Part shown: positions 31,501-47,020 of the stretch, piece by piece | Layout of the letters: each line of letters opens with the position of its first letter | Position numbering within the stretch: position 1 is the first letter of the stretch | Assembly: GCA_963727445.1 (NCBI GenBank) | Contig: CAVSGI010000010.1 | Location: 1,344,001 to 1,408,000 of the forward strand | DNA length: 64,000 bases | Origin: an uncultured delta proteobacterium | GTDB lineage: Bacteria; Myxococcota_A; Polyangia; Polyangiales; B10-G4 | Direction: 5' to 3' | Translations under genes and position numbers: made by a program | The notes under the pieces: generated by a model | Database searches by the model: none | The model's input: only the letters and a program-made list of their open reading frames with translations | Told to the model about the DNA's origin: nothing

Positions 31501-32470
31501 TCACCCCGTCCGCCAGGAGGACCGCGACCACGCGCTGCTCCCCGGGCGTGATCGAGGGTGCATGGACCGCCTCGGAGACCGACGTGGCGGCGGTCGCGAT
31601 CTCGCCCTGGCCCGCGGGCGTCTCCGTGAGATCGACCGCGCTGAGCGCCGCGTGAAGCTCCGCGGCGTCCTGATAGCGCTCGGCCGGGCTCTTGCTCAAA
31701 CAGCGGGAGACGACCGCGGCGAGGGTGGGGGGCACGTGCGGCGCCACCATCGTCAGGCTCGGGGCCTGCTCGACCATCACGGCGAGGATGGTGGCGAGGG
31801 CGGTCGAGCGGTCGAAGGGAGAACGGCCCGCGAGGAGCTCGTGCATGACCACGCCGAGGGACCAGACGTCGGTGCGCGCGTCGAGGGTGCTCGCGCCGTT
31901 CGCTTGCTCGGGGCTCAAGTAGGTCGGGGTCCCGAGCACGCTCCCGGTCGCGGTGAGGCGCGTGTGGTCGTCGCTCAGCCGGGCGATGCCGAAGTCGATG
32001 ATCTTGAGCGTGCCGTCCTCGCAGAGGAAGAGGTTGGAGGGCTTGAGATCGCGATGGACCACCTGGGCGCGGTGGGCCGCCGCCAGACCGCTGGCCGCCG
32101 CGAGGGCGAGGCGATGCGCCGTGTGGACGTCCAGGCGTTCTCTCGCGATGCGTTCCGCGAGGGACTCGCCGACGAGGAGCTCGAAGGCGATCCAGGGCAC
32201 CCCCTCGTCCACCCCCGCATCCACCACCTCGACGATGTTGGGGTGGTCGATGCGGATGCGCGCCTCCCGCTCGAAGCGAGCGCGCTCGGCCCGTGTACGG
32301 ATGCCGCTCGAAAGCAGCATCTTCACCGCGACCTCTCGGCCCTCCGGATCGGTGGCGCGGTAGACGACGCCCATGCCCCCGCGACCCAGGACCTCCCCGA
32401 GCTCGTAGTGGCCGACCCGCCCGCGCCCGGGCGCGTCGTCGCGATCCTGAGCGCCCGCGTCGTCGACCAT
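28577..32470 (-). CDS. Ser/Thr kinase - degenerate cyclase-like region - STAND/AAA ATPase - TPR protein
   Basis: HRDLKPSN/DFG kinase; EQRVVAVLL; VGREAE, GPPGIGKS Walker A, LLLEDVHWAD Walker B, GNPLF; C-terminal TPRs; start at ATG 32470 (GATAAT 7 nt upstream) or 32479. Confidence 0.9.
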   Translation of the reverse strand: MVDDAGAQDRDDAPGRGRVGHYELGEVLGRGGMGVVYRATDPEGREVAVKMLLSSGIRTRAERARFEREARIRIDHPNIVEVVDAGVDEGVPWIAFELLVGESLAERIARERLDVHTAHRLALAAASGLAAAHRAQVVHRDLKPSNLFLCEDGTLKIIDFGIARLSDDHTRLTATGSVLGTPTYLSPEQANGASTLDARTDVWSLGVVMHELLAGRSPFDRSTALATILAVMVEQAPSLTMVAPHVPPTLAAVVSRCLSKSPAERYQDAAELHAALSAVDLTETPAGQGEIATAATSVSEAVHAPSITPGEQRVVAVLLADGVTDRHGLEAAVEEAGGTLIPVMGDRAIGLFGGEAWEGDEVERAVSAALEARDAARFMGVASGRAAYSGATGIAGSALVAAERACAMKVDGIAVDATSARALSNVYTIRQVDGGDYEITDRTSGSITSTLPPPARPRTVGREAEIAQLASALRTVREEEHASVVLVTGPPGIGKSHLRWELGRLLEDESDEHDEEPFVVLTARADPSRRGVGLGLWESVLVGYATWGSERHGWPRIHRSAPSTERQDAVRRLVQAALPPGPLAEDLTGFFGALLGVDVKSSAALDAARRDPQLMQDRLRLGITDWLAALSEKAPIALLLEDVHWADEASLSLIEEMTELLADAPIFTFLTARPELLEDYPEFLAGGSSTKLNLGGLSPSQVEALVEVILSGKKLPSETVRALSERAAGNPLFVEQIVLAMREEKLLDQPLDRLPLPLTVEAAVQGRLDHLPSAEKDLCKRAALFARPFTMEDLEALGFYDSKKHLVSLSRRDILASRSRPGPPRRREYRFRSTIVRDVAYRMMARALRDDLHLRLAEHLATLADVSPEEVAQHYEYAGRSGEAADWYARATTAAALLGDAPRTLACADKALELGTPRAKWFELQMARSEALEMLGRLEEQGHALDGALATAADDRERARALTNRAVCFFRLGKSEDAIRVSEDAVSRARSAGDPEVLATARGRQAVILAYTGEVDAATKALAEAQSVAPAGLASINTSLWLWKAQVTSVTGDLAERRTAYREAIAGYEAAGDLRRAAGAEMNLADADNRVGAYLEAEKGLRAALEKLRRLGNRLMEGYALLNLGYALVRQLRSQDAAPILEECLAVAEETGESRLAVGARIYLAQAHLMAEPESAQAEAEKAGRDAEAAGFLQLASLGLATAGYAAIRARATEAAIALATEAMAIRDWLGGLEEDEGEVFSVLSRALAQAGREDEAREVRARGWARIQEIGARISDAELRRCFFEDVRSHQVLAEP

Positions 32471-32548
32471 CGCGCGCATTATCGGATCAACACCCCCGAG
32501 GTGCGAGGATCGTGACCCGCAAATCGGGCGGGCCGCCAAATCCGTGCG

Positions 32549-32860: not shown

Positions 32861-34795
32861 ATGGAAACGCTACGGTTAGTCCCCTTGGTCCTCCCTAAGA
32901 ACGAGAGCGCGAAGTCCGGCGAGGTCACGCGGGTCGGACGCTACCAGCTCGCCTTCGAGCTCGCTTCCGGCGGCATGGCGACCGTCTACCTCGCCCGGAC
33001 GGAAGGCCCCGCCGGCTTCGACAAGGTCGTCGCGCTCAAGCGCATCCATCCCCACCTGGCCAAGGAGAAGGCCTTCATCGACATGTTCCTCGACGAAGCG
33101 CGAATCGCGTCGAGGATCAGCCACCCCAACGTTTGTAGCGTCTTCGATTTCGGTGAGGCCGACGGCTCGTTCTTCATCGCGATGGAATACGTGATGGGCG
33201 AGACGGTCTCACGGCTGATCCGTCGCCTGCGCACGGAGAAGGAGCACTACAAGGACCCCCGGCTCCCCGGCCTCGCCGCCAAGATCATCGCGAGCGCCTG
33301 CGACGGGCTCCACGCGGCGCACGAGCTGAAGGGGGACTCCGGCGAGCTCCTGCAAGTGGTCCACCGCGACGTCTCGCCCCAGAACCTCTTCCTCGCGTAC
33401 GACGGCACGGTCCGCGTGGTGGATTTCGGCATCGCCCGCGCCGCCGGCCGCCTCCACGAGACGCGCACCGGCACGGTCAAAGGCAAGCTGGCCTACATGC
33501 CGCCCGAGCAGGCGCGCAAGCTCGCGGTCGATCGCCGGGCCGACGTCTGGGCCCTGGGTGTGGTCCTGTGGGAGATCCTCTGCGCCAAGCGACTGTTCAA
33601 GCGCGCGAACGACGTCGAGACGATCCTGGCGGTCATCAACGACCCGATCCCGGCGCCGTCGGAGGTCCGCAAGACCGTCCCCGAGGAGCTCGACCGGATC
33701 GTGATGAAGGCGCTCGCCCGAGACCGCGACGACCGCTACGCCACGGCACGGGAGATGGGCCGGGAGCTCCACCGCTTCCTCGGCACCCTCGACGAGCCCG
33801 TCACCAACGGCGACCTCGCCGACTGGATGGACGAGCTCTTCCCGGTGGAGAAGAAGCAGCGACTGGAGCTCATCGCCGAGGCACGTCGGACGCGGTCTGG
33901 GGCTGTGCCGCAGCTCGTCGATATCGCCGAGGAGCGCTCCGAGTCCGAGGTTCGGCCGATCATCAGCGACACCGACGTGAAGAGCGACGTCGTGACCGAC
34001 GGGAAGACGAGCCGCATCGTGGATACGCCGTCCGTCGCATTCGACGATGGGCTGGCGACGGACGAGGTCCCGAACGCCGACGAGCCGTCTACGGTCGACG
34101 AAGACGCCCCTCCCCCGATCGCTCAGCCGGCGGCGGCGGTCCCCGAACCCATCGACGCAGCGCTCATCGCCCCCGGCCCCAACAAGAAGCTGATCGCCCT
34201 CGGGCTCGGCGTGGCCGCGCTCCTGCTGATCGGCATCGTCGCGCTCTCCTGGGGCGGTGAGGAGCCGGAGGTGGCGGACGCCGAGAGCACCGACGTGGCG
34301 GAGAGCGAAGCGGAGCGCCTGGCTGCCGAAGACGAGGGCGCCAGCGCAACCGAATCCGAGCAGGAGACCGGATCCGTCTTCGACCCCGAGCCCGAAGATG
34401 AATCGGGGACCGAGGCGGAGACGGAGGCGGAGTCAGAGGCGTCCGAGGACGACGATCCCGTGTTCGGACAGGCCGCGGAGACCGAGACCGAAGCGGAGAC
34501 GGACACACCCGAGCCGGATCCACGACCGACCCACCGCCCCTCGATGCGTTGGCAGAGACCGTCGTCGCAGATGAGCAATTCGCACGCGGTGGGCGACGTG
34601 AACATCAGCACCCCGGGCGGATGGGCCGACGTCTATCTCGACGGTCACAAGCTCGGCCGCGCACCGGGTCGCCTGACGGTCCCCGCCGGCCGGACGGTAC
34701 TGATTTTGCGCCCCTTCGGTGGCTCCGAGTCGCGACGCGTCTCGGTCAACGTGCCCGAAGGGGCCACGCGCCGGGTCATCGTCGACCTGAATTGA
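32861..34795 (+). CDS. Membrane Ser/Thr protein kinase with C-terminal PEGA domain
   Basis: LASGGMATVY, VALKRIH, HRDVSPQN, DFG, KGKLAYMPPEQ; TM; acidic linker; TPGGWADVYLDG PEGA. Confidence 0.92.
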   Translation: METLRLVPLVLPKNESAKSGEVTRVGRYQLAFELASGGMATVYLARTEGPAGFDKVVALKRIHPHLAKEKAFIDMFLDEARIASRISHPNVCSVFDFGEADGSFFIAMEYVMGETVSRLIRRLRTEKEHYKDPRLPGLAAKIIASACDGLHAAHELKGDSGELLQVVHRDVSPQNLFLAYDGTVRVVDFGIARAAGRLHETRTGTVKGKLAYMPPEQARKLAVDRRADVWALGVVLWEILCAKRLFKRANDVETILAVINDPIPAPSEVRKTVPEELDRIVMKALARDRDDRYATAREMGRELHRFLGTLDEPVTNGDLADWMDELFPVEKKQRLELIAEARRTRSGAVPQLVDIAEERSESEVRPIISDTDVKSDVVTDGKTSRIVDTPSVAFDDGLATDEVPNADEPSTVDEDAPPPIAQPAAAVPEPIDAALIAPGPNKKLIALGLGVAALLLIGIVALSWGGEEPEVADAESTDVAESEAERLAAEDEGASATESEQETGSVFDPEPEDESGTEAETEAESEASEDDDPVFGQAAETETEAETDTPEPDPRPTHRPSMRWQRPSSQMSNSHAVGDVNISTPGGWADVYLDGHKLGRAPGRLTVPAGRTVLILRPFGGSESRRVSVNVPEGATRRVIVDLN

Positions 34796-35646: not shown

Positions 35647-37338
35647 TCAGAAGAGCGAAGGCCGCCACACCACGCCCGCGAGGACGAGGAGCGCGTCGAT
35701 GTCCCGACTGGTGAGCCCGTCGACGTCGACGGTGACGTCGAGCTCCGGCAGCGGCGTGAGCAGGATGCCGCCGCCGACCATGTGCTCGAAGTAGCGGTCG
35801 ACGTCGGCGCGGTAGCGCGTCAGCGCCGGACGGTAGTGAATGGAGAGGTCGAAGACGCCGGGGATGATCTCGGCGCCGACGCCCGCGCGGATCGCGTAGG
35901 TCTCGATGAGCTCGCCGGTGGTCACCATCACGGTCAGATCGGCGCGCGCCACGTCGAAGAGACGAACGGCTCGTGCGTTGACCCACCCCGCGAGCTGGTC
36001 GAGGCGGTCCTTCTGGCCGACCTGGATCACCGTGCCCCCCGCCGTCACCGCCACCTTTTCGAGCTCGACCCCCACGTCGGCCGCACCGACCATGCGCGGC
36101 TCGAACTGCCCGGTGCAGGTCTCGTTCTCTGTCGGCGTGGCGGGCGCCCCCGGCACACGCACACAGAGCCAGCTCGGCGGCAGGTAGGACGCGAGCCAGC
36201 GCGAGCGCTCCGGCCGGCGCATGTCGAAGCGCGCGCCCGCACGGAAGACGCCGAGGCGAAGCGTCCCGTCGACGCCGGCCGCGGTGAGCTCGACCTGATC
36301 GGCGCCCCAGGGGTTGTCCGCGTCGAAGAGGTTGATCTCCGCGTGCGCACCGACGCGGGACTCGCCGGGAAACATGTCCACAGTGGCCGTGAGGCGGCGC
36401 TCGTCGATGGCGCCGTTGTAGAGCGACCCGTGGCCGACCAGCGCCACCACCGGACGGAGCGGATGCTCGGGCATTCGGAAGATCGCCTCGAGCCCGAAGC
36501 GGCTGGTGTCGAAGTTGGGGGCGCCGTCGATGGGGTTGGGCACGAAGCCGCCGAAGCCGGCGACGGTGATGCCCGAGAAGTTCGGGGACTGAATGCGCAG
36601 GCCATCCAGCTGTCCGATGGTGCTCGCTGCGTAGCGCATGCGACCGAGCGCAGCGTAGAAGTCCGCCGTCTGGCCGTAGGCGATCTGGAGCTCTCGCACC
36701 CTGAGATACGGCTGCGACGGACGCCCGGCGCGCGTGTCGAGGTTCGGCGCCATCCAGGCCTGGAACGCCGCGTCCGCGTCGATGGAGAGCGGCGTCCCCT
36801 GAATGGGCTCGGCGTGGACCTGCGCGCGAACCGCCACGCGACCGATCCCCGTGCCCTGGCCGCCCAGGGGGAGCATGGCCGCGCCTCCGACACCGAGGGC
36901 CAGGTTCAGGCGATGCTCGGCGGTGGTGACGCCCAGAGGCACGTAGTCCGGTTGCTGCTCCGATGCCGGCAGGGTGGCGTCGGGCCACTGACCGCGGAAC
37001 GCGGCGAGCGGCCGCACCGGCGGCAGCGCCACTTCCTCTTCCGTCCCGGCGTCACGCCGCGTGATCGCGACCCCTCGCGCCCCCAGCTCCACTCCCGACG
37101 GCGGGATCTCGATCGTCGCGTAGGAGGAGGTGACGCCGATGACCTCGTAGCGATGGCGCTGGATCAGCACCCGATCGCCGCGCGAGATCCCCTCGTTGGC
37201 GCCGGGCTCGACGTAGGCACGATCGCCGCTCACGTCCACGACCTGCACCCGGACGCGACGACGCTCCTGAGCCTCGGCTTCCGCCGCGGACAACAGGCCC
37301 AGCAGCCAGAGCGCCATCATCGGAAGCAGCCGCGTCAT
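35647..37338 (-). CDS. Outer-membrane beta-barrel protein, candidate porin of a porin-cytochrome complex
   Basis: Signal peptide ..AEAEA; small N-terminal beta domain (VVDVSGDRAYVEPG..GISRGD, FlgT-C-like); many amphipathic strands; ends VVWRPSLF; ATGA overlap with decaheme gene. Confidence 0.75.
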   Translation of the reverse strand: MTRLLPMMALWLLGLLSAAEAEAQERRRVRVQVVDVSGDRAYVEPGANEGISRGDRVLIQRHRYEVIGVTSSYATIEIPPSGVELGARGVAITRRDAGTEEEVALPPVRPLAAFRGQWPDATLPASEQQPDYVPLGVTTAEHRLNLALGVGGAAMLPLGGQGTGIGRVAVRAQVHAEPIQGTPLSIDADAAFQAWMAPNLDTRAGRPSQPYLRVRELQIAYGQTADFYAALGRMRYAASTIGQLDGLRIQSPNFSGITVAGFGGFVPNPIDGAPNFDTSRFGLEAIFRMPEHPLRPVVALVGHGSLYNGAIDERRLTATVDMFPGESRVGAHAEINLFDADNPWGADQVELTAAGVDGTLRLGVFRAGARFDMRRPERSRWLASYLPPSWLCVRVPGAPATPTENETCTGQFEPRMVGAADVGVELEKVAVTAGGTVIQVGQKDRLDQLAGWVNARAVRLFDVARADLTVMVTTGELIETYAIRAGVGAEIIPGVFDLSIHYRPALTRYRADVDRYFEHMVGGGILLTPLPELDVTVDVDGLTSRDIDALLVLAGVVWRPSLF

Positions 37339-38222
37339 CGTCCGCGTCCTCCCGGATGGCAGGAGAGACAGGCGGCGCCGCTGGTCGCGACCGCGCCACC
37401 CCGGTGCTGCTGGCGGATCATGAGGGGCGAGTGCGCGTGGCAGCCGGTGCAGGACACGGCGTTGGTCGCCGGCTCGGAGAGGTGGCAGCTACGGCAAGGC
37501 GCTCCACGGTGCGAGCCGAAGCTGATCGCGAAGCGGATGTCGTGGGTCCGGGGCGCCGTGCTCGTGAGCGGGCTGGTGCGCGGCAGCGCGGTGGGATCGA
37601 CGAACGCCGGCGTCCAGCCGTCCGCGCGGTGACACGCCCCGCAGTCGCGAGGGAAGGGAGGGTTGCCGGCCGTGCCGTCGTGGTTGGGATGGACGCTGCT
37701 GTCGCGGTACTCGCTCTCGTGGCAGGCGTAGCACTCGGCCGGTGTCGCGCTGTACCAGCGCTCGCCGGTTCGCCGGTGGCAATCGGTGCAGGCCGCGAGG
37801 ACGTGCATGCCCGTGAGCGGCAGGCGCGTCTGCCGGTGGATGGTGATGGCGCTCGTCCGGTACCAACCCTGCGCGTTGTGGCAGCGGTCGCAGCTCTGTC
37901 CGAGGCGCCGCTGGTGCGGGTCCTGGTGGCAGCTGTTGCAGTCGCGGCGTACGCGCTGCTCGGGCTGGTGGCAGTTGGTGCAGGCCACCGCGCGGTGGCG
38001 GCCCGAGAGGGGGAAGCCGGTGCGGGAGTGGTCGAAGCCCGATTCGCCGCGCACCGTCCCGGTCACGCCCCACCCCTCGGGGGTGTGGCATGCGCTGCAC
38101 TGGATCCCCTGGGTGATCGACGCGTCGTGTCCCCGGCGTTGCGCCCCAGCGTTCGATCCCAGCACAGCCGCGCCGGCCAGACTGGCGACTGCCGCGAGAG
38201 CGAAGAGTACGCGTCCCCTCAT
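37335..38222 (-). CDS. Decaheme c-type cytochrome (295 aa)
   Basis: 10 CxxCH (CSACH, CTNCH, CNSCH, CDRCH, CTDCH, CYACH, CGACH, CRSCH, CTGCH, CLSCH); signal peptide MRGRVLFALAAVASLAGAAVLG; ATGA overlap upstream. Confidence 0.92.
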   Translation of the reverse strand: MRGRVLFALAAVASLAGAAVLGSNAGAQRRGHDASITQGIQCSACHTPEGWGVTGTVRGESGFDHSRTGFPLSGRHRAVACTNCHQPEQRVRRDCNSCHQDPHQRRLGQSCDRCHNAQGWYRTSAITIHRQTRLPLTGMHVLAACTDCHRRTGERWYSATPAECYACHESEYRDSSVHPNHDGTAGNPPFPRDCGACHRADGWTPAFVDPTALPRTSPLTSTAPRTHDIRFAISFGSHRGAPCRSCHLSEPATNAVSCTGCHAHSPLMIRQQHRGGAVATSGAACLSCHPGGRGR

Positions 38223-40057
38223 CGCTCCGGCTCCTCGTGCGGTGAGGCGTGACAATCGTTGCACTCGTTGTAGCCCAGACGATAACGCACGACCTCGGTG
38301 TCGTTGCGGAGATTGACGGTGGGGTGGCAGCTCGCGCACTCCGCCTGCGCGTGGCGGCCCTCGAGCGCCCAACCCGCCTTGGCCACGTGGTCGAAGCGGC
38401 GGATCTGGAAGATGGTCGTCGTGTGGCAGCTCTCACACGCCTTCTGCGGATCCGTGAGTCGGAACTGACCGGCGTGAACGTCTGCGTGACACCCCTGGCA
38501 CTCCCGCGGCGCGCCGCGGTAGCTCGCGCCGCGCCCCGAACGCCGGTCTTCCTCCGACGGAGAGTGACACGCGTCACAGGTGGTCAGCTCGTGAGCGCCC
38601 GTGAGCGGCCAGGTCGAGTGATCGATGTTCGGGCGATCCCACCCCGCCGCGCTGTGGCAGCTCGCGCATCCCCCCGCTGCCATCTCCCGCGCGAACTGAT
38701 CGCCGTGTGGGTTTTCGTGGCACGTCGCGCATGCCTCCTGGGCGCCGCTCCAAGAGAGGCGCGGGCGATTGTCGTGATGATGGCAGCCGCTGCACGGCAC
38801 GGCCGTGTGACGCCCCTCGAGCGCGAAGCCCGTGGAGGCGTGCATGGTCACGCCGAAGAGGCTGGGCGAGAAGCCTCGCACGGTGTGGCAGCCGCCGCAC
38901 TCGCCGCCCTCGCGGGACGCGAACTCGCCAGAATGCCGATCCTGATGGCACGAGTCGCAGCGGTCGAAGGTCAGCTCGCGATACCGCTCCTGAGGCGGCA
39001 GCCGGCGCTGGTGACATCGGTCGCAATCGACGCTCTCGTGGCGGCCTTCGAGGGGGTAGGCGGTGCGCGCGTGCGCCGCGCGACCGATCCGCTCGGGCAG
39101 CCCCGTCCACTTGATCGACCGGTGGCAGCGCGCGCAGTTGCGGCCGAACTCCGCTTCGTGCACCGGCCGGTGACAGCCGACGCAAGCGCGGCCTGCGCGC
39201 GGTGCGCGGTCGACGCCGGCGTCGTGACATCGTCCGCAGGCGACGCGCGCGTGACCGTTGCGCAAGGAGAGCCCCGGATGGTTGCTGCGCACCGCGCCGA
39301 GGTCGTCCCACCCGCTCTCGTTGTGGCACTGGGCGCAGCGCGGCCCGTACCGGCCGCGGTGAGGATCGGAGTGGCAGCTCGCGCAGGTGCTGAACTCGAT
39401 GCCGCGGTATCGGGGCGGCTCGCCGTGACACTCGCGGCAGGCGACGCTCCTGTGCTCTCCGCGCAGGGCGAAGCGCGAGAGCGAATGATCGAACTCGCTC
39501 ATGCGAACCGTCCGCCAGTTCTGCTCGTTGTGGCAGGTGTTGCATCGATCCCCGAAGCGGCCGCTGTGCGGGTCGTCGTCGGAATGGCAGGAGTTGCAGT
39601 TGGTCCTGAGCCCGAGATAGGTCCGGTTGCCGCGACGGTTGCGGCTATCGTGGCAGCGGCGGCACTGGATCTGGAGGTGACCGCCGCGGAGCGGCCAACC
39701 GGTGTCGTCGTGATTGAGTCGTTCCGGCGATCCGCCGGGCCAGCGCACCAGCGACGTACCGCGCCCGAGGTGCTCAACGTGACAGCTGACACAATCGCGC
39801 CCGCGATATTCGCGCCCGTGAAGCCCGCGATGCGCGCGGATCTGCGCCCCGAGGTCGTTGTGGCAGCGCAGGCAAGCGCTCTCCTCGACCCGCCGGCCGG
39901 AAGCGTGACATCGGTTGCAGTTGTCGTCGCCTTCGAGCTCGCTGTGCGCGCGGCTGAGCGGACCCGGCGAAAGGAGCTGAGCGCGCGCGACGGATGGAGG
40001 TCCCGCCACGACCATGGCGCTGCTGACCAGGAGGAGCGCTATCGTCTGTGGTCTCAC
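38219..40057 (-). CDS. Multiheme c-type cytochrome with 23 CxxCH motifs (612 aa)
   Basis: 23 CxxCH counted; signal peptide ..SVARAQ after GTG 40057 (GTGA overlap); repeated H..T.(F/W)PL.G.H..CxxCH units. Confidence 0.92.
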   Translation of the reverse strand: MRPQTIALLLVSSAMVVAGPPSVARAQLLSPGPLSRAHSELEGDDNCNRCHASGRRVEESACLRCHNDLGAQIRAHRGLHGREYRGRDCVSCHVEHLGRGTSLVRWPGGSPERLNHDDTGWPLRGGHLQIQCRRCHDSRNRRGNRTYLGLRTNCNSCHSDDDPHSGRFGDRCNTCHNEQNWRTVRMSEFDHSLSRFALRGEHRSVACRECHGEPPRYRGIEFSTCASCHSDPHRGRYGPRCAQCHNESGWDDLGAVRSNHPGLSLRNGHARVACGRCHDAGVDRAPRAGRACVGCHRPVHEAEFGRNCARCHRSIKWTGLPERIGRAAHARTAYPLEGRHESVDCDRCHQRRLPPQERYRELTFDRCDSCHQDRHSGEFASREGGECGGCHTVRGFSPSLFGVTMHASTGFALEGRHTAVPCSGCHHHDNRPRLSWSGAQEACATCHENPHGDQFAREMAAGGCASCHSAAGWDRPNIDHSTWPLTGAHELTTCDACHSPSEEDRRSGRGASYRGAPRECQGCHADVHAGQFRLTDPQKACESCHTTTIFQIRRFDHVAKAGWALEGRHAQAECASCHPTVNLRNDTEVVRYRLGYNECNDCHASPHEEPER

Positions 40058-40923
40058 TCGGACCAGATCCAACGATAGCCGTAGAACCAGGCGACTCCGA
40101 TGTGCACCGAAACTGAGAGGATCATCAAGATCGCGAGAAAGCGATGGAGCCCGCGCCAGCTGCGTAGGAGCGCGGTGCCGGCTGCGGTGCCCGCCTCGGC
40201 GCCGGCGAGCTTCGCGGTCTCCTTCGTGATGCGCTTGGCTTCCTCGAGCTCCTCCGGGAGCATCGTCTTCGGGCGCGTGAGCTCGTGAAACGCATCGCGC
40301 ACCACCCTGCGACGCGCGCGCTGCTCCTTCATCCATCGCGGGATGGTCGCGATGGCGCGCATGAGCGAGACGTTGGCCGCCAGGTAGGTGACCTTCTTCG
40401 CGCTCAGCTCTTTTCGGATCATGGCGCCGAGCCCCGGCAACAGCTCGTCCAAGGCCATCAGGTTGTCCGCGATCTGTTGGCTGTCCGGCTTGGGTGCGAT
40501 GGCGTAGAAGTACCGACCGATCACGCCCGTGAGCACCACCATCGAGAGGCTGGCAGATGTGACAGTTGCGATCGGTGTACGCAGTTGGAACGCCGAGTGG
40601 AACAGGATCAGCAGCGAGCCCACGAGCCCCGTCACTACGTGCATGTTCAGCCAGGCTTCCATCGAGCCCAGGAGACGGAGGCGGGCGACGCGCCGGCGAA
40701 CCAGATAGAGCAGATTCGTGAGAATCAAAAAGGTTCCGACGATTCCGTAGCCATGTCCGACGATGCTGCCAGGGCTCAGCACGCGGTAGTCGTCGTGCAT
40801 CACGCGGTCCTGGAGATCCATCGTGTAGAAGTCCCAGCCACGAGCCAGGAGCACCGCCGTCGTCCCCACGAGTATCAACAGGAGCAAGAAGCGGGCCCGC
40901 TTGGGCCGCATCTGTTGCTCCAT
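40054..40923 (-). CDS. Inner-membrane di-heme cytochrome b-like (ferric-reductase-type TM) protein
   Basis: About 5 TM helices; two H-x13-H pairs (WLNMH..LFH and WRGLH..SVH); start uncertain (40962/40950/40923/40911). Confidence 0.75.
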   Translation of the reverse strand: MEQQMRPKRARFLLLLILVGTTAVLLARGWDFYTMDLQDRVMHDDYRVLSPGSIVGHGYGIVGTFLILTNLLYLVRRRVARLRLLGSMEAWLNMHVVTGLVGSLLILFHSAFQLRTPIATVTSASLSMVVLTGVIGRYFYAIAPKPDSQQIADNLMALDELLPGLGAMIRKELSAKKVTYLAANVSLMRAIATIPRWMKEQRARRRVVRDAFHELTRPKTMLPEELEEAKRITKETAKLAGAEAGTAAGTALLRSWRGLHRFLAILMILSVSVHIGVAWFYGYRWIWSE

Positions 40924-41034
40924 CCGCGTGAGACTCCCCGTGTGGCGCATGAGCGGCCCCATGCTGCCGACCGCGCCGCTGGTGTCAACGTGAAAAGTAC
41001 GCTCGCGGCCATTGATTGGCGATAGTTTACGAGC

Positions 41035-42348
41035 GTGACGACCGCGATCATCCTCGCCGCCCTGGTCGGTCTCGCGCTGCTCCTGTCCTTCGCCTGGAAG
41101 AGCTTGGAAGGGGCGCGGGAGCAGAAGTCGGCGGACTTGCTCGCCGACATGGCGTCGATGGGTGATGTCGCCCCGCCAAGCCTCCACCCGTACATCGATC
41201 CTTCGAAGTGCGTCGGCTCGGGCGCCTGCGTTCGCGCCTGTCCCGAGCACGACGTCATCGCCCTCGTCGGCGGTCAGGCCCAGCTGATCAACCCCCTCGG
41301 CTGCGTCGGCCACGGGGCCTGCGCCGCGGCCTGCAGCTTCGATGCGATCAAGCTCGTCTTCGGAACCGAGACGCACGGCGTCGAGCTGCCCAAGACGGAC
41401 AGGAACTTTCAGACGAATCAGCCCGGCGTCTACATCGTCGGAGAGCTCGGCGGCATGGGGCTCATCCGCAACGCCGTGTCACAGGGCTCGCAAGCGGTGG
41501 CGCACATCGCCTCGGGCGGTCGGCGCGGCGGCGGGGATGTCTTCGACGTGATCGTGGTCGGCGCAGGCCCCGGCGGGATCGCCGCCACCCTCGCTGCGAT
41601 GGAGGCAGGCTTGAACGTCGTGTGCGTCGAGCGGGAGGAGCTCGGCGGAACCATCCTCCACTACCCGCGCGCGAAGGTCGTGATGACGGGCACCCTCGAG
41701 CTCCCGCTCTACGGCAAGGTCCGCAAGCGCACCATGAGCAAAGAGAAGCTCGTCGAGCTCTGGGACGACATCCGCGACAAGACGCAGCTGCCAGTGGCGA
41801 CAGGTGAGCTCGTCGAAGCGCTCGTGCAGAACGCGGACGGCACCTGGACCGTTCGCTCGACGACGGGGGATCGCCGTGGCGCCAACGTGGTGCTCGCCCT
41901 CGGGCGGCGCGGCTCACCCCGCAAGCTGGGTGTACCCGGCGAGGATCACGCCAAGGTCGCCTATCGGCTCCTCGAGCCGGAGGTCTTCGAAGGACAGCAC
42001 GTGCTGGTCGTGGGCGGAGGCAACAGCGCCGTGGAGAGCGCGATCGCCCTGGCCGATTACGGCGGCTGCGCCTCGGTGGGGATCAGCTACAGACGCACCG
42101 AGTTCGCGCGCTGTCGCGGCGAGAACAAGGCGCGCATCGCGGAGCTCCTATCGACGGGAAAGGTGCGGGGCTTCTTGCCGAGCAACGTCGCGCGCGTCGA
42201 AGATCGAACGGTGACTCTGCGCTCCGACGATGGACGCGAGGCGCCGCTCCAAAACGACGCGATCATCGTCCAGATCGGCGGCACCAGCCCGGCGAAGCTC
42301 CTCCAGAGCTTCGGGATCCAGATGGTGACGAAGTACGGCGAGCGTTGA
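41035..42348 (+). CDS. Membrane-anchored ferredoxin-FAD/NAD(P)H oxidoreductase (TrxR-like fold)
   Basis: N-terminal TM; CVGSGACVRACP and CVGHGACAAAC Fe-S motifs; VVGAGPGG FAD motif; VVGGGNSA..YRR NADPH motif. Confidence 0.88.
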   Translation: MTTAIILAALVGLALLLSFAWKSLEGAREQKSADLLADMASMGDVAPPSLHPYIDPSKCVGSGACVRACPEHDVIALVGGQAQLINPLGCVGHGACAAACSFDAIKLVFGTETHGVELPKTDRNFQTNQPGVYIVGELGGMGLIRNAVSQGSQAVAHIASGGRRGGGDVFDVIVVGAGPGGIAATLAAMEAGLNVVCVEREELGGTILHYPRAKVVMTGTLELPLYGKVRKRTMSKEKLVELWDDIRDKTQLPVATGELVEALVQNADGTWTVRSTTGDRRGANVVLALGRRGSPRKLGVPGEDHAKVAYRLLEPEVFEGQHVLVVGGGNSAVESAIALADYGGCASVGISYRRTEFARCRGENKARIAELLSTGKVRGFLPSNVARVEDRTVTLRSDDGREAPLQNDAIIVQIGGTSPAKLLQSFGIQMVTKYGER

Positions 42349-42354
42349 AGAACC

Positions 42355-43395
42355 TCACGGGCACGCGCTGGCACCGCCGCCCACGCAGATCGTCAGAGAA
42401 CCGTAGTCGCAACACTGCCCCGAACAGCCACCGCAGGGACAGGCGCTGCACCCGAGCGTCGTGAAGGTCCGGCAGCTCCCGCCGACGCAAACGGCGTTCG
42501 GGGCGCACGGCATGTCACACCCACCGCAGTGTCGGGGATCGGTCGTGATGTCGACGCAGTGATTGGAGCAGTTCGTCATCGTGGTCGTGCAGCGGTCCTC
42601 GCAGGTTCCGCTGCGACACGTGACCTCGCTCCCCGTGTCGCAGGCCCTACCCTCCGAGCCGCAGTTGTTCGGGTCGGTTCGCAGGATGGTGCAGCTCCCG
42701 TCGGAGAGCATGTCGAGCTCCGGGCGACACTCGCAGCTCCCGCCGGTGCAGTACTGCTCGCCGACGGCGCAGGACGAGCCGCAGCCCGGCACGCTGGTGT
42801 CCTCCGTGCTCGTATCCCACGACCCCGTGTCCCAACCCGAGTCGACGCGGGAATCACGTCCGCTGTCCCTGACGTTCGTGTCGGGTCGCGCGTCCATCGC
42901 GGTGTCCGGGGGCGCGTCGGGGAGCGCGTCCATCGCTCCGTCGGGCGCCGTCGCGTCGGGCATACCCGCGTCGTCGGACGTACAGCGCCCCTCTGTGCAC
43001 TCCATCGACGTGCAGGCCGCCTCGCCCGGACCCGGGTCGAGCGTCACGACGAAGGGGTCCACCTCGGTCGGCAGCGTGAGCTCGCGACACCCTTCGACGT
43101 ACCAGTGGCAGCTCTCGTTGCGCGCCCTTCCGCGTACGGCGTAGCTCCCCGCAGGCAGCGCCATCGGCCGCATGGTGCCCGACCCCGAAAGCGGAACCTC
43201 GGCGCTGAAGAGCACGCGCCCGTCGCAGCTCCCCTCGAGGATCGACGCCTCGACGTAGCGCGCCTGCGCCCGCTCGGCCTCGGTTCGAAAGTGAACGCCC
43301 CAATGGAGCGGGTGCGCATCGGCCCGGCACGCCGTGAGCAGGGTCAGCAGGACCCAAGCAGCGCGAATCGTCAGTTGCGACCGTTCGGATGACAT
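42355..43395 (-). CDS. Cys-rich lipoprotein with STIG1-like (DxxNCGxC) repeats
   Basis: Lipobox LLTAC; Asp-rich linker; TDPNNCG and TDPRHCGGCDMPC repeats. Confidence 0.8.
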   Translation of the reverse strand: MSSERSQLTIRAAWVLLTLLTACRADAHPLHWGVHFRTEAERAQARYVEASILEGSCDGRVLFSAEVPLSGSGTMRPMALPAGSYAVRGRARNESCHWYVEGCRELTLPTEVDPFVVTLDPGPGEAACTSMECTEGRCTSDDAGMPDATAPDGAMDALPDAPPDTAMDARPDTNVRDSGRDSRVDSGWDTGSWDTSTEDTSVPGCGSSCAVGEQYCTGGSCECRPELDMLSDGSCTILRTDPNNCGSEGRACDTGSEVTCRSGTCEDRCTTTMTNCSNHCVDITTDPRHCGGCDMPCAPNAVCVGGSCRTFTTLGCSACPCGGCSGQCCDYGSLTICVGGGASACP

Positions 43396-44276
43396 TCGAG
43401 GCAGAAGTTCACGGAGGAGGTGCCGGTTGGATAATCCCGAACCTCACGGTGCTTGCTGTCCATGCGGGAGCGCGAGTGTTCTCCGGTGTGACAGCCGATG
43501 CAGTCGGTGTTCATCCCGCCCGTGCTCGGCCCGAGATCCGGGTTGTGGCAATCGAGGCAGGCGTAGTCGTGAGGCTCCCGCTGGATCGGGAAGCGCGACT
43601 CCGGGTGCGCGGCCTCGAGCGCCGGCGTCCACGCGGTCGTCGTGTGGCACGTGTCGCAGGTCGTCGGGAAGGAGCCGTGCCCCGGATAGGGGCTCGAGTC
43701 GTAGTCTGCGCGGTGACAGCCCACGCAATCGCGCGGCGTGCCCGCGTAAACCGGCGGGCTGCCCACGTGACAGCTCGAGCACGCCGTCGCCGCGTGGGCG
43801 CCGTCGAGGGGCCAGGAGTGATCGAAGGTCGAGGGCCGCCAGGCCGCGTCGTCGTGACACTGGGCGCAGTCCGTGGGGTAGCCGTCGTGCGGCGGCATGG
43901 TGGCGTTGTCGTAGTCGCTCTGATGACAACCGACGCAGGTGTTCGGCGTGTCGCCGGGACGGTAGCCGACCGTATGACACCGGTTGCAGTCGAGCTCCGC
44001 ATGCGCGTTCTGGAGCACGAACCACTCGTGGTTGATCGCCACCGCCGGAACCCACGCGTCCTCGGTGTGGCAGTCGGCGCACTTGGTGTCGAAGAGATCC
44101 TGGTGCACCGGATTGTCAGTCGCCTGGTACTCGGGGAGGTGGCAGAGGACGCAGTCCTCCTCCATCACCGGCACCGCCTCGTGCCGGGGGTCCTGACAGG
44201 CCCCGAGGGCCGCCGCGGCCACGAAAACCAGCCCCAGGACCACACTCCATCCCCGGCGAGACATGACCATACGCAT
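43371..44276 (-). CDS. Lipoprotein multiheme cytochrome c with 11 CxxCH motifs
   Basis: Lipobox ALGAC; CVLCH, CADCH, CNRCH, CVGCH, CAQCH, CSSCH, CVGCH, CDTCH, CLDCH, CIGCH, CLECH; start 44276/44270/44264. Confidence 0.92.
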   Translation of the reverse strand: MRMVMSRRGWSVVLGLVFVAAAALGACQDPRHEAVPVMEEDCVLCHLPEYQATDNPVHQDLFDTKCADCHTEDAWVPAVAINHEWFVLQNAHAELDCNRCHTVGYRPGDTPNTCVGCHQSDYDNATMPPHDGYPTDCAQCHDDAAWRPSTFDHSWPLDGAHAATACSSCHVGSPPVYAGTPRDCVGCHRADYDSSPYPGHGSFPTTCDTCHTTTAWTPALEAAHPESRFPIQREPHDYACLDCHNPDLGPSTGGMNTDCIGCHTGEHSRSRMDSKHREVRDYPTGTSSVNFCLECHPNGRN

Positions 44277-44320: not shown

Positions 44321-47020
44321 TCACCGATCGAGGGGGACGATGACCCGGGTCCGCTGCCCTGCCCTCACCCGGATCGTCGCGGCTTTTTCGGGGCTTCGGC
44401 CGAAAGGCAGGAGCCGCAAGCGGTAGCTTCCTGGCCTCAGGCGCAAGGTCCCTGGGGATCGCCCGACGCGTTGATCCCCGATATACACGTCCGCCCACCC
44501 ACCGGGCGTCGCGATGTTCACGCGACCGCGCCTCGGCTGACGGGTTGTCGTCGGGGCTCGTGCCCCCCCAGGGTCCGGCGCCTCCTCGACGCTGGGGTCG
44601 GACGCCTCCTCGAGAGTGGGATCCGGCTGCGGATCGGGATCGCCGGGACCCAGGAGCTCGAGGCCGTCCTCGTCGCCTGCCTCCACCGCGACAGCCTCGG
44701 GCGCTTCGGGCTCGCCAACGGATGGGGTCACCTCTTCTTCGGTCGTCTCCGTCTCGCCTTGCTCTCGGGTGTCTCGGGTTCCGCGCTCGGGGGTGAAGAC
44801 GTGGGTGCCTGCCCACACGCCGATCACCGCCACCGCGATCACCGCTCCGATCCAGCCGATCGCCCGCAGGGGCGAGTGCGACTCCTCCGAGGGGTAGTGG
44901 CTGATGCGCTGCTCGGGTGGCGGCACCTCGATCAATTCCGAGTCACCGAGATTCTGCGTGTGGTGGGCGTCGTGCTTCTGGGGACCGCGCACGTGCGCAA
45001 TCAGGTCCTCGAGGTGCTTTCGTTCCCGGCCGAAGACCCGCTCCATCCACTCGGCGAGGTCCGCTCGAGAGACGGGCTCGGCCTCCGCCGCCATCACGCG
45101 CGCCAGATCGCGCCCGAGATCGCGCGCCGTCGGGTAGCGCTGGTCGGGGTCTCGGCTGAGCGCTTTGAGGGTGACCCGGTCGAGCTCCGCGGAGACCCGC
45201 GGGTTGAGCTCGGAGGGCGGCGGGATGGGAGCGTCGAGCACCGCCATCAGGGTGTCGGGATCATTGTCGCGCCGGAAGAGCCGCCGCCCTGTGAGCAGCT
45301 CCCAGAGCACGATCCCCATCGCCCAGACGTCGACGCGACGGTCGAGCTTCTTTCGCCGGCACTGCTCCGGCGAGACGTAGCCCAGCTTGCCCTTCATGGC
45401 GCCGGTCTTGGTCTTGTGGAGCCGGCCCGCCGCCCGCGCGATGCCGAAGTCGACGACGGTGACATGGCCCCCGAAGCCGAGGAAGAGGTTCTGCGGTGAG
45501 ACGTCGCGGTGGATCACGTCGAGGGGCTTGCCGAAGTCGTCCTTCGTCTCGTGGGCGGCGTGAAGCCCTTCGCACGCGTCCGCGATGATGTAGGCGGCGA
45601 GGGCGGGCCATGTCGGCGCCTCTCGGTCCTCCTTGCTCTCCGCGATCTTCTTGAACACCGCCCCCAGGGTCTCGCCCTGGATGAACTCCATCGCGATGTA
45701 GTAGCCGCCGTCGACCCGTCCGAAATCGAAGACGCTGCACACGTTCGGGTGGTCGATGCGCGAGGCGATGCGCGCCTCGTCCAGGAACATCTCGATGAAG
45801 GACGCTTCCCTGGCGAGGTGGGGATGGATGCGCTTGAGGGCGACGAGCTTCTCGAAGCCGCCCGGCCCTTCGGCGCGCGCCAAGAAGACGGTCGCCATCC
45901 CGCCCGAGGCCAGCTCCGCGCTCAAGGTGTAACGGCCGAATTTCTGGCCCGGCTGGGCATCGGAAAAGGACGCGCCCGGCGGGCGAATGGGCGTGAGGGC
46001 CTGCCCGTCGGCGCTCGTCACGGCGGTCACGAAGGAGTCGGCATCGCCGAAGTCCTTCAGGCTCAGCTCCGGCCTGATCTCGCCGGTCGGCTCGGCGACG
46101 AAAGAGCTCGGGCCGGGCTTGGGGTGAGGCCGGGTGGTCGCCATGTCGGTCGCGCGCCCGGCGAGCACGTCCCGGGCTGCACGCCCGCCCGCCGCACGTG
46201 CGCGTGCCACGAAGCCCTCGAGCACGTCCGCCACGTCGCGCGCCCGCTCCGGCCGCTCCTTCGGCTCGACCGCCAACATCGAGCGCAACAGTGGTCTCAA
46301 CTCCTCGGGAACCCCATCCCAGGCAACCACCTCCAGATCGGCCTCGGCCGGCAAGGCCCCGGTGAAGGCGCGCACGAGGATGCGACCGAGGGAGTAGAGG
46401 TCCGCTCTCGCGTCCACCGCCCCACGCCGCCACTGCTCTGGCGCCATGTACTCCGGGGTTCCACCGACGAGCGCCTCCTCGTCATCGACGGCGATGGCGA
46501 CGCCGAAATCCGTCAGGCGAACGTCGCCCGCGCGCGAGATGAGGATGTTCCCCGGCTTGACGTCGCGATGGATGATCGGCTGATGCTCGTTGTGGTGTGC
46601 ATAGTCGAGAGCCCGCGCCACCTCCGCCACGACGTGCGCGACCACATCGGGCGCGAGCTGCATCCCGGACTCCTGCGCCTCGTCGAGGATCTGGCCGAGA
46701 TCCGTCCCGTCCACCCACTCCATGGCGAGGAAGTACTCGTCGCCGGCCCGTCCGAAATCGAACACGGGAACGATGTTGGCGTGGGCCAGCCGCATGGAGA
46801 GGCGCGCCTCGCTGACGAAACGGTCGAGCGTCCCCGGTCGCGACAGCCGCTCGGCCTGGATGCGCTTGATGCACAGGTCCTTCACCACCCCGCCGGGCCC
46901 GAACGCCCGGGCGCGATGGACTTCGCCCATGCTCCCGCGACCGAGCGACTCGAAGAGAATGTACTTCCCGACGCGCTCAGGGCCTCTTGCAGGGCTCGCC
47001 TCCGACACGGCGAGGATCAT
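44321..47020 (-). CDS. Tandem dual-domain Ser/Thr kinase with TM and PEGA domain
   Basis: Two complete kinase cores (HRDVKPGN/DFG and HRDVSPQN/DFG); TM; TPGGWADVYIGD PEGA; true start may be GTG 47008. Confidence 0.9.
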   Translation of the reverse strand: MILAVSEASPARGPERVGKYILFESLGRGSMGEVHRARAFGPGGVVKDLCIKRIQAERLSRPGTLDRFVSEARLSMRLAHANIVPVFDFGRAGDEYFLAMEWVDGTDLGQILDEAQESGMQLAPDVVAHVVAEVARALDYAHHNEHQPIIHRDVKPGNILISRAGDVRLTDFGVAIAVDDEEALVGGTPEYMAPEQWRRGAVDARADLYSLGRILVRAFTGALPAEADLEVVAWDGVPEELRPLLRSMLAVEPKERPERARDVADVLEGFVARARAAGGRAARDVLAGRATDMATTRPHPKPGPSSFVAEPTGEIRPELSLKDFGDADSFVTAVTSADGQALTPIRPPGASFSDAQPGQKFGRYTLSAELASGGMATVFLARAEGPGGFEKLVALKRIHPHLAREASFIEMFLDEARIASRIDHPNVCSVFDFGRVDGGYYIAMEFIQGETLGAVFKKIAESKEDREAPTWPALAAYIIADACEGLHAAHETKDDFGKPLDVIHRDVSPQNLFLGFGGHVTVVDFGIARAAGRLHKTKTGAMKGKLGYVSPEQCRRKKLDRRVDVWAMGIVLWELLTGRRLFRRDNDPDTLMAVLDAPIPPPSELNPRVSAELDRVTLKALSRDPDQRYPTARDLGRDLARVMAAEAEPVSRADLAEWMERVFGRERKHLEDLIAHVRGPQKHDAHHTQNLGDSELIEVPPPEQRISHYPSEESHSPLRAIGWIGAVIAVAVIGVWAGTHVFTPERGTRDTREQGETETTEEEVTPSVGEPEAPEAVAVEAGDEDGLELLGPGDPDPQPDPTLEEASDPSVEEAPDPGGARAPTTTRQPRRGRVNIATPGGWADVYIGDQRVGRSPGTLRLRPGSYRLRLLPFGRSPEKAATIRVRAGQRTRVIVPLDR

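Follow-up and report, generated by a model that had tools for sequence, protein, structure and literature searches.

The closest described relative of the locus considered here is PCC3, a porin-multiheme cluster predicted by He et al. in 2017 (PMC5566968), which the accessible part of that paper defines by four adjacent genes together with a signature in the inner-membrane protein. The same text notes a likeness of this membrane protein to the FRE/NOX domain and proposes coupling to quinone, and subsequent studies, in the sections available, treat PCC3 as four genes of untested function (PMC9900912, Hoover et al. 2023; 10.1101/2025.02.27.639646; PMC8788666, Zhou et al. 2022). Here we analyze a six-gene cluster (positions 35647 to 44276) in a 64,000-nt stretch of DNA, referred to below as the window, from an uncultured myxobacterium (assembly GCA_963727445.1, contig CAVSGI010000010.1, positions 1,344,001 to 1,408,000). 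Judged by its sequence, the four-gene operon in this cluster is a match to PCC3. The initial annotation had recognized no characterized or described system in it; this view has to be abandoned, because the four parts, their order and the membrane-protein signature are those that He et al. describe. What goes beyond the PCC3 descriptions, as far as their accessible text extends, is a conserved and often fused iron-sulfur (Fe-S) flavoprotein, which would link the operon to the cytoplasm.

All six open reading frames were found at the positions first assigned to them when checked on the 64,000-nt window. Four genes on the minus strand are chained by 4-bp overlaps (GTGA at 40054-40057, ATGA at 38219-38222 and ATGA at 37335-37338) and encode, in this order, a five-helix inner-membrane protein (40054..40950), an exported, repeat-built cytochrome c of 612 residues with 23 CxxCH heme motifs (38219..40057), an exported cytochrome c of 295 residues with 10 such motifs (37335..38222) and an outer-membrane beta-barrel of 563 residues with a signal peptide (35647..37338). 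On the plus strand, a membrane-anchored Fe-S flavoprotein of 437 residues is encoded divergently (41035..42348), and a minus-strand gene beyond it (43371..44276) specifies a lipoprotein cytochrome c of 301 residues with 11 CxxCH motifs and the lipobox LGA-C. The sum of 44 heme motifs, like the positions, sequences and overlaps in the initial annotation, was reproduced in full. In the remaining 55,370 bases of the window, read in six frames, CxxCH occurs only twice, and composition-matched shuffled versions of the three cytochromes (100 shuffles) contained 0.7 motifs on average and never more than 4.

The correspondence with PCC3, as described in the accessible text, extends from gene content to detail. 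Both sets comprise adjacent genes for an inner-membrane protein, a large periplasmic multiheme cytochrome, a second multiheme cytochrome and a porin, in the same order. Both have a five-helix protein of about 300 residues with WX3HX13H on helices 3 and 5, a signature shared by PCC3 and PCC4. The multiheme proteins are repeat-built, at 22-39 residues per heme in PCC3 and at 26.6, 29.5 and 27.4 in the 23-, 10- and 11-heme proteins here; the periplasmic one has about 21-27 hemes in PCC3 and 23 here; and the PCC3 barrel is given at least 22 strands, with 22 predicted both for Leptothrix cholodnii and here. The differences are that PCC3 was described from Alpha-, Beta- and Gammaproteobacteria, whereas the present cluster comes from Myxococcota; that helix 4 carries SGxxG in PCC3 and TGxxG here; and that an Fe-S flavoprotein and a lipoprotein cytochrome are added, whereas the published model uses quinone. 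The second multiheme of PCC3 is described as extracellular; its counterpart here, the 10-heme protein, carries an ordinary signal peptide. The assignment compares the cluster with the architecture and motifs described for PCC3, whose named proteins include Slit_0867-0870 and those of L. cholodnii. A Gammaproteobacteria-labelled locus (L098) has a divergent flavoprotein, together with the membrane protein, a 21-heme cytochrome and a second multiheme in PCC3 order. It is homologous to the window cluster (34%, E 3e-72; 48%, E 1e-131; HHalign 99.9%), and four of the five taxon-labelled matches in its membrane-protein clade are Gammaproteobacteria.

The start of the five-helix protein is ambiguous (ATG at 40962, 40950 or 40923). 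Numbered from the ATG at 40950, its hydrophobic helices span residues 21-39, 63-81, 99-117, 127-145 and 271-289. Both WX3HX13H motifs are present in all 44 aligned homologs, with W100, H104, H118, G142, G145, W265, H269 and H283 invariant. The helix 4 motif reads TGVIG; its first position is Thr in 32 of the 44 homologs, Ser in 10 and neither in 2, both glycines are invariant, and SG is strict in a five-member alignment (A5). Mean net charges over the alignment are +3.1 for the N-terminus, +4.3 for loop 2-3 and +7.5 for loop 4-5, where the other segments have -1.5, +0.5 and +0.2, and a large basic cytoplasmic loop is predicted. Because of this positive-inside charge pattern, H104/H269 are placed on the cytoplasmic and H118/H283 on the periplasmic side as predicted ligand pairs of two b hemes, which, facing opposite sides, would provide a two-heme path across the membrane. 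No Pfam match to PF01794, the ferric reductase transmembrane domain, was obtained with this protein, which gave only a sub-threshold match to DUF4405. For the membrane protein, the barrel and the 23-heme protein (the last at E<=0.01 in the PDB), sequence searches of solved structures found no relatives.

The flavoprotein starts with a helix, its putative membrane anchor, that is kept in 38 of 41 homologs. Two ferredoxin-like motifs with a non-Cys second ligand follow (C59-S62-C65-C69 and C90-H93-C96-C100); Ser62 is conserved in 39 of the 41 homologs and His93 in all of them. Profile positions 169-431, the flavin module, match residues 3-267 of the S. aureus-type Bdr chain 7a7b_A (E 4e-42). This chain comes first among the matches, with thioredoxin reductase (TrxR) and TrxR-type ferredoxin-NADP reductases after it; the best solved sequence relatives of the module, of the Bdr/YpdA and TrxR-type ferredoxin-NADP reductase kinds, are PDB entries 7A7B, 7A76 and 3AB1 (E 4e-42 to 5e-32). 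Because the N-terminally placed residues ~120-159 match the C-terminal residues 298-339 of a 343-residue thioredoxin reductase (E 0.0016), the domain for flavin adenine dinucleotide (FAD) is circularly permuted. The module contains GGGNSA and YRR; the pattern GGG[ND][SA]A and an invariant Arg353 are features that we take, from work on the TrxR family, to be those of enzymes using reduced nicotinamide adenine dinucleotide phosphate (NADPH). Identity as a thioredoxin reductase was rejected, as the redox-active CxxC is found in the flavin module of 0 of 41 homologs, and identity as YpdA/Bdr proper was rejected on a TIGR04018 score of 137 against a cut-off of 339.9 and on the displacement of the C-terminal FAD segment to the N-terminal side. 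On this sequence evidence the protein is best described as a circularly permuted Bdr/TrxR-type enzyme that lacks CxxC, not as a NOX domain, and it would carry FAD and two Fe-S clusters and use NADPH.

Flavoprotein and membrane protein occur together in most genomes that have the former. Among 301 genomes sampled from the phylum (all counts include the source genome, and close kin are not independent), the membrane protein was detected in 87 and flavoprotein profile matches at E<=1e-60 in 105. We kept the 76 full-length flavoprotein matches above 430 bits, which come from 68 genomes, and dropped weaker or partial ones. Both proteins are present in 67 of these 68 genomes, and the membrane protein lies within 10 kb of the flavoprotein in 66 of the 76 cases and within 700 bp in 43; seen from the other side, 65 of the 99 matches to the membrane protein have one of these flavoproteins no farther than 10 kb away. 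We further inspected 44 loci picked by membrane-protein match, namely the 4 closest, which belong to Sandaracinaceae and Polyangia metagenome-assembled genomes (MAGs), as befits a myxobacterial source, and 40 high-ranking ones, the profiles having been built in part from the same loci. A flavoprotein was found in 40, a cytochrome with at least 20 hemes in 40, a barrel match in 38 and all four components in 36, in line with the conserved neighborhood that the initial annotation anticipated. Its idea that gene order tracks the path through the envelope fared less well, as the order varies widely in relatives. Among incomplete loci, L003, L045 and L070 end at contig edges, the flavoprotein is missing locally from L059, no barrel match was obtained in L069 or L071, and L074 is of another type. 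One locus (L035:10535-15178) has two flavoprotein copies 2 kb apart, and in another (L002:13378-15266) the barrel gene is broken across three reading frames.

The set also occurs beyond the phylum, in Bacteroidota and in Gammaproteobacteria-labelled sequences, while full-length flavoproteins are present in 68 of the 301 phylum genomes. Plasmid searches gave full-length matches in Emticicia alone: the cultured Emticicia oligotrophica DSM 17448 (Bacteroidota) carries on its 100-kb plasmid pEMTOL02 (NC_018749.1) the full cassette, comprising the membrane protein, the flavoprotein, 23- and 40-heme cytochromes and a barrel, directly 3' of its own ccsA (L075:8857-20655). A metagenome search with the 23-heme protein yielded 40 loci, 23 of them with the membrane protein and 15 of those with a flavoprotein match; most remaining loci are short contigs, L094 and L108 being possible exceptions.

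Gene fusions tie the two proteins more closely. At 9 of the 44 loci they form one chain of ~740-800 residues, in both orders. In all 6 membrane-protein-first fusions, helix 5 is followed, ahead of the Fe-S domain, by a hydrophobic segment (best 19-residue mean 1.26-1.99) and then a run rich in Arg; in all 3 flavoprotein-first fusions, a soluble linker leads to helix 1. The linkers of both orders would therefore keep the flavoprotein in the cytoplasm. Of 13 longer homologs in the database, 10 also contain both Fe-S and pyridine-nucleotide oxidoreductase domains. A predicted complex of flavoprotein and membrane protein scored 0.39 against 0.14 for the best control, with contact agreement of at least 66% and partner predicted local distance difference test (pLDDT) values of at least 73. 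Among solved pairs, 116 of 157 attain the mark applied to such predictions, and among mismatched pairs 2 of 215 do; at scores of <=0.60, however, only 18 of the 157 and both mismatches do so. The prediction thus supports the pairing weakly. That flavoprotein and cytochrome b-like protein are functionally linked, as the initial annotation proposed, is supported by co-location and fusions, and more weakly by modeling.

We examined 18 of the 34 membrane-protein matches without a close flavoprotein (L126-L143). At all 18, the membrane protein forms the C-terminal part of a 670-1150-residue frame with two CxxCxxCxxxC motifs; 13 adjoin a cytochrome of 18-31 hemes and 5 a barrel match. These loci look like a sister family, in which a 4Fe-4S region, in part preceded by a cNMP-like one, stands before the membrane protein and a 25-31-heme cytochrome usually comes next. 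Of the 9 fusions among these 18 that were searched against Pfam, 6 have 4Fe-4S domains and 1 has a cNMP-binding domain, whereas 2 gave nothing. Because an Fe-S fusion is found at all 18 of these loci, the constant partner of the membrane protein is, judged by sequence, a cytoplasm-side Fe-S domain. More distant homologs have other partners: at L074 the membrane protein pairs with a TrxR-fold, cNMP and 4Fe-4S protein, and in alphaproteobacteria its neighbors are FNR-fold FAD/NAD proteins and 2Fe-2S domains, FNR-fold partners being seen only in these distant loci (L076 and L077). On the plasmid of Bradyrhizobium sp. BTAi1 (L076:4490-10651), gnd and zwf come directly before a gene for an FNR-fold/2Fe-2S protein, which is joined by genes for a membrane-protein homolog and a 7-heme cytochrome; this plasmid has three copies of the membrane-protein gene. 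NADPH coupling would accordingly be the common case but not a rule, with NADPH the likely electron source in this window.

Turning to the outer parts of the cluster, the 23-heme protein has 27 spare His residues, and spare His residues in the cytochromes suffice for bis-His ligation. The 23-heme protein, 34% identical to a 21-heme protein grouped in one cluster with a Gammaproteobacteria-labelled sequence, is a candidate for a periplasm-spanning wire. A lipobox, read by eye, is confined to the 11-heme protein. The 10-heme protein is a candidate barrel-inserted or outer cytochrome, and the 11-heme lipoprotein may be an accessory part, these positions being deduced rather than observed. Best-hit homologs of the lipoprotein (E<=1e-20) occur at 26 of the 44 loci, although such repeat proteins cross-match, and those beside the cassette in relatives have 5 to 29 hemes. 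The cytochrome clusters that ESM Atlas listed were all unnamed or generic. For the barrel, an AlphaFold2 model based on a 134-row alignment (A4) reached a pLDDT of 94.1 and a predicted template modeling score (pTM) of 0.77 (a single-sequence fold with a pLDDT of 36 was discarded). The model has a small N-terminal beta domain, a linker and, by our own count from the DSSP list, 22 barrel strands, and it lacks a TonB-type plug domain. Relatives of the barrel are numerous (1570 representatives at E<=0.001), and no Pfam or NCBIfam family matched it (NCBIfam at E<=0.05). The matches listed by Foldseek and VIA are generic outer-membrane barrels at <=12% identity, among them ushers, Occ porins and TonB-dependent transporters (Z at most 18.6; root-mean-square deviation 4.0 over 268 residues), and include no Mtr or Pcc porin. 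With the membrane protein, the multihemes and the predicted barrel all in place, the anatomy of a trans-envelope conduit first proposed for the locus is supported.

Based on these results, we suggest that the cluster represents a PCC3-type set joined to a cytoplasm-facing Fe-S flavoprotein and acts as an outward, NADPH-fed trans-envelope reductase that operates without quinone, a reading to which we give an even chance. NADPH would reduce FAD in the permuted Bdr/TrxR-fold domain, and electrons from FAD would reach the cytoplasmic-side heme b by way of the two Fe-S clusters, moving on to the periplasmic-side heme b within the five-helix protein. The 23-heme protein would carry them across the periplasm, and the 10-heme protein, in or at the 22-strand barrel, would take them outward, with the 11-heme lipoprotein in an accessory role. 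The membrane potential helps an electron out of the negative cytoplasm and is discharged by its passage, and the proton from NADPH oxidation stays inside; NOX enzymes likewise dissipate the proton-motive force. Inward flow to NADP+ would need a donor well below -320 mV. The outward direction is thus favored because inward flow would be uphill both in redox potential and in voltage. As outward flow would spend proton-motive force, its purpose is more likely to get rid of excess reducing power, or to reduce metal oxides, humics or partner cells outside the cell, than to conserve energy in respiration.

Several observations weigh against this reading. The NADPH input envisaged in the initial annotation, likely in this window, does not hold universally: 34 of the 99 membrane-protein matches have no flavoprotein within 10 kb, and in the 9 Fe-S fusions scanned with Pfam no FAD/NAD family was detected at E<=1e-7. 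L067 combines the membrane protein with the flavoprotein but shows no multiheme gene over 20 kb, L094 (an 11-kb contig) has the membrane protein and a 21-heme protein without a flavoprotein, and L108 (a 19-kb metagenome locus) has both cytochromes and the barrel without membrane protein or flavoprotein. The MtrB barrel has 26 strands compared with the 22 predicted here, a cytoplasmic Fe-S partner is compatible with a quinone site, and we found no biochemical or expression data for any member of the family. In the accessible descriptions, moreover, the PCC3 clusters of Sideroxydans ES-1 and of CL21 consist of four genes without a flavoprotein, and the membrane protein of the second PCC3 copy of CL21 was up-regulated when cells could oxidize iron (10.1101/2025.02.27.639646).

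The absence of a flavoprotein from the described clusters fits the published PCC3 model, in which the five-helix protein is a quinone-reactive cytochrome b tied to the quinone pool; the flavoprotein would then be a co-located NADPH:quinone or NADPH:ferredoxin enzyme serving the same pool. He et al. proposed quinone exchange from a likeness to the cytochrome b of bc1 and hydrogenase (PMC5566968, accessible text), and the flavoprotein's own membrane anchor would suit such an arrangement. Fusion with the flavoprotein at some loci and with an Fe-S domain at others points instead to a direct cytoplasmic redox partner of the membrane protein, and hemes predicted on opposite faces would make up a full transmembrane path; we consider the quinone model unlikely. 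The CL21 response would fit a wire running inward, from an extracellular donor such as an Fe(II) mineral, a partner cell or a cathode to cytoplasmic NADP+ or ferredoxin, and so would the finding of PCC3 in Fe(II) oxidizers and the TrxR-type ferredoxin-NADP reductases among the close solved relatives of the flavin module, some of which reduce NADP+. On standard bioenergetic grounds such flow would run uphill against both the NADP+/NADPH and the membrane potential, with no coupling device encoded. In addition, expression of the two PCC3 clusters of Sideroxydans ES-1 fell on Fe(II) (PMC8788666, accessible text), in keeping with some function apart from taking up electrons from Fe(II). An inward wire seems distinctly improbable to us.

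Alternatively, the inner module might serve a narrower task in the periplasm or at the surface (reductive iron uptake, detoxification, radical chemistry or charge storage), with the barrel exporting or anchoring an outer cytochrome instead of enclosing a wire. Members of the membrane-protein family do also occur with small periplasmic multihemes and no porin (He et al. 2017, Supplementary Table 6, as far as accessible; L076), and the barrel has the size of TonB-dependent transporter barrels, with no electron-conduit porin among its listed matches. Respiration could be served by the heme-copper oxidases and a separate NrfD/DsrP-type multiheme cluster of the same genome. Yet a barrel and large cytochromes accompany the inner module at 36 of 44 loci, and 44 hemes would be a large cost for assimilatory iron reduction, which makes this explanation, too, rather unlikely.

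The remainder of the genome provides the context for these proposals. Three PF01578 proteins and one CcmE scored above cut-off, so that cytochrome c maturation, a prerequisite raised in the initial annotation, is available. No NapC/CymA family match was found in the genome, which is 86% complete. Heme-copper oxidase genes lie at three places; at one (G000:C10:218241-219538) the match to subunit I is broken into three pieces that lie in different frames and is possibly frameshifted. A second multiheme cluster (L078:3865-18739; G000:C2, ~64900-79700) has 29-, 6-, 12- and 10-heme genes, DsrP/NrfD-like and DsrO-like subunits just below cut-offs, 3- and 8-heme genes and an OmcA/MtrC-family decaheme above cut-off. 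It looks like a quinol-linked conduit, and because of this DsrP/DsrO-like cluster with its decaheme, a conventional quinol-type route may exist separately from the PCC3-type cluster. Elsewhere (L079:5751-9182; G000:C10:601750-605181), a lone 26-heme protein of 1143 residues with a lipoprotein-like start adjoins ATP synthase-like genes; its N-terminus resembles the 11-heme lipoprotein of the window (52% over 67 residues).

Between the flavoprotein and lipoprotein genes lies a gene of about 1 kb (42355-43395) for a cysteine-rich, MXAN_6577-like protein that scores below the cut-off of that family. We do not count it as part of the system, because it has about 30 paralogs among the matches listed in its own genome and a match at only 1 of the 44 related loci. 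Ser/Thr kinase-like genes flank the cluster at 28577-32539 (-), 32861-34795 (+) and 44321-47020 (-), the product of the last having two kinase-like catalytic loops (HRDVKPGN and HRDVSPQN) in a single chain. No RNA holder is listed for the cluster region. Fur, FNR, CRP and Rex boxes had no good match in 14 divergent intergenic regions (best at least 3 mismatches), and regulation therefore gives no clue to function. The 8-mer ACAAAAGG occurs just 5' of the flavoprotein start in 8 of the 14 regions, all from close kin (intergenic regions of L035-L042 and L088), and is absent from the window.

A wider proposal, which we hold tentatively and put somewhat short of an even chance, is that PCC3-type clusters are widespread trans-envelope reductases wired to cytoplasmic Fe-S domains and mostly fed by NADPH, forming a NOX analogue with a surface heme wire that bypasses the quinone pool. 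If this were true, PCC3 would have been misread as a candidate iron oxidase, and many heterotrophs not regarded as electroactive could reduce their surroundings. Extracellular electron transfer by an NADPH-fed wire would be distinct both in kind and in energetics, and the wire might offer a compact module for coupling cellular NADPH to electrodes. Such a reading would give PCC3 clusters a concrete assay, and natural single-chain fusions together with the cultured Emticicia carrier render the question directly testable.

Apart from PCC3, several known systems share parts of this design. PCC4 and the porin-less clusters that He et al. list as multiheme cytochrome, HX13H membrane protein and redox protein have the same membrane-protein motifs and an unnamed "other redox protein"; they differ in having 4 to 18 hemes and mostly no porin, and the accessible text does not name the redox protein as an NADPH enzyme. 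L074 and L076 fit the sizes in Supplementary Table 6 of that paper, as far as it is accessible. In karst MAGs, a "ferredoxin-NADP+ reductase" gene lies near 7 of 11 porin-cytochrome clusters of one group, and functional coupling was suggested (PMC13264449, 2026). As described in the accessible text, by which alone we compare it, that group centers on a large 4-5 kb decaheme gene, and no membrane-protein partner or mechanism is given. A giant unassigned cluster has been reported from a Lentimicrobium MAG (PMC13013709), and the accessible text of PMC4245776 and 10.1101/2022.03.26.485925 contains no match to the system. Apart from the passing remark on FNR in PMC13264449, the literature searched, whose coverage leaves out most subscription journals, yielded in its accessible text no description of an NADPH-fed porin-cytochrome system.

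MtrCAB/PioAB and the Geobacter Pcc/Ext systems likewise combine a barrel with periplasmic and lipoprotein multihemes. The profile comparison with MtrA/B/C and PioAB suggested at the outset set the cluster apart from MtrCAB/PioAB: PF11854, the MtrB/PioB family, matched neither the barrel nor any other protein of the genome, and the cluster cytochromes fall far below the cut-offs of the MtrA/DmsE and MtrC/OmcA decaheme families (TIGR03508, 28 bits against 192.2; TIGR03507, 15 against 209.3). The Geobacter systems are marked by an OmbB/ExtB-family porin with Oma/Omc cytochromes; in NCBIfam the present barrel gave no match at E<=0.05. Bdr/YpdA and the TrxR-type ferredoxin-NADP reductases (7A7B, 7A76 and 3AB1) resemble the flavoprotein in having no CxxC, whereas the flavin module here is circularly permuted and fused to two Fe-S motifs and a membrane anchor. 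The split NOX/ferric-reductase module proposed in the initial annotation survives as an analogy only. As in NOX, FRE and MsrQ-type enzymes, two HX13H motifs could hold two b hemes across the membrane, with a cytoplasmic feed from FAD and NAD(P)H. Here, in contrast, the membrane protein has five helices rather than six and no PF01794 match, the putative dehydrogenase combines a TrxR/Bdr fold, not an FNR fold, with Fe-S motifs, and the output would be a wire of c hemes.

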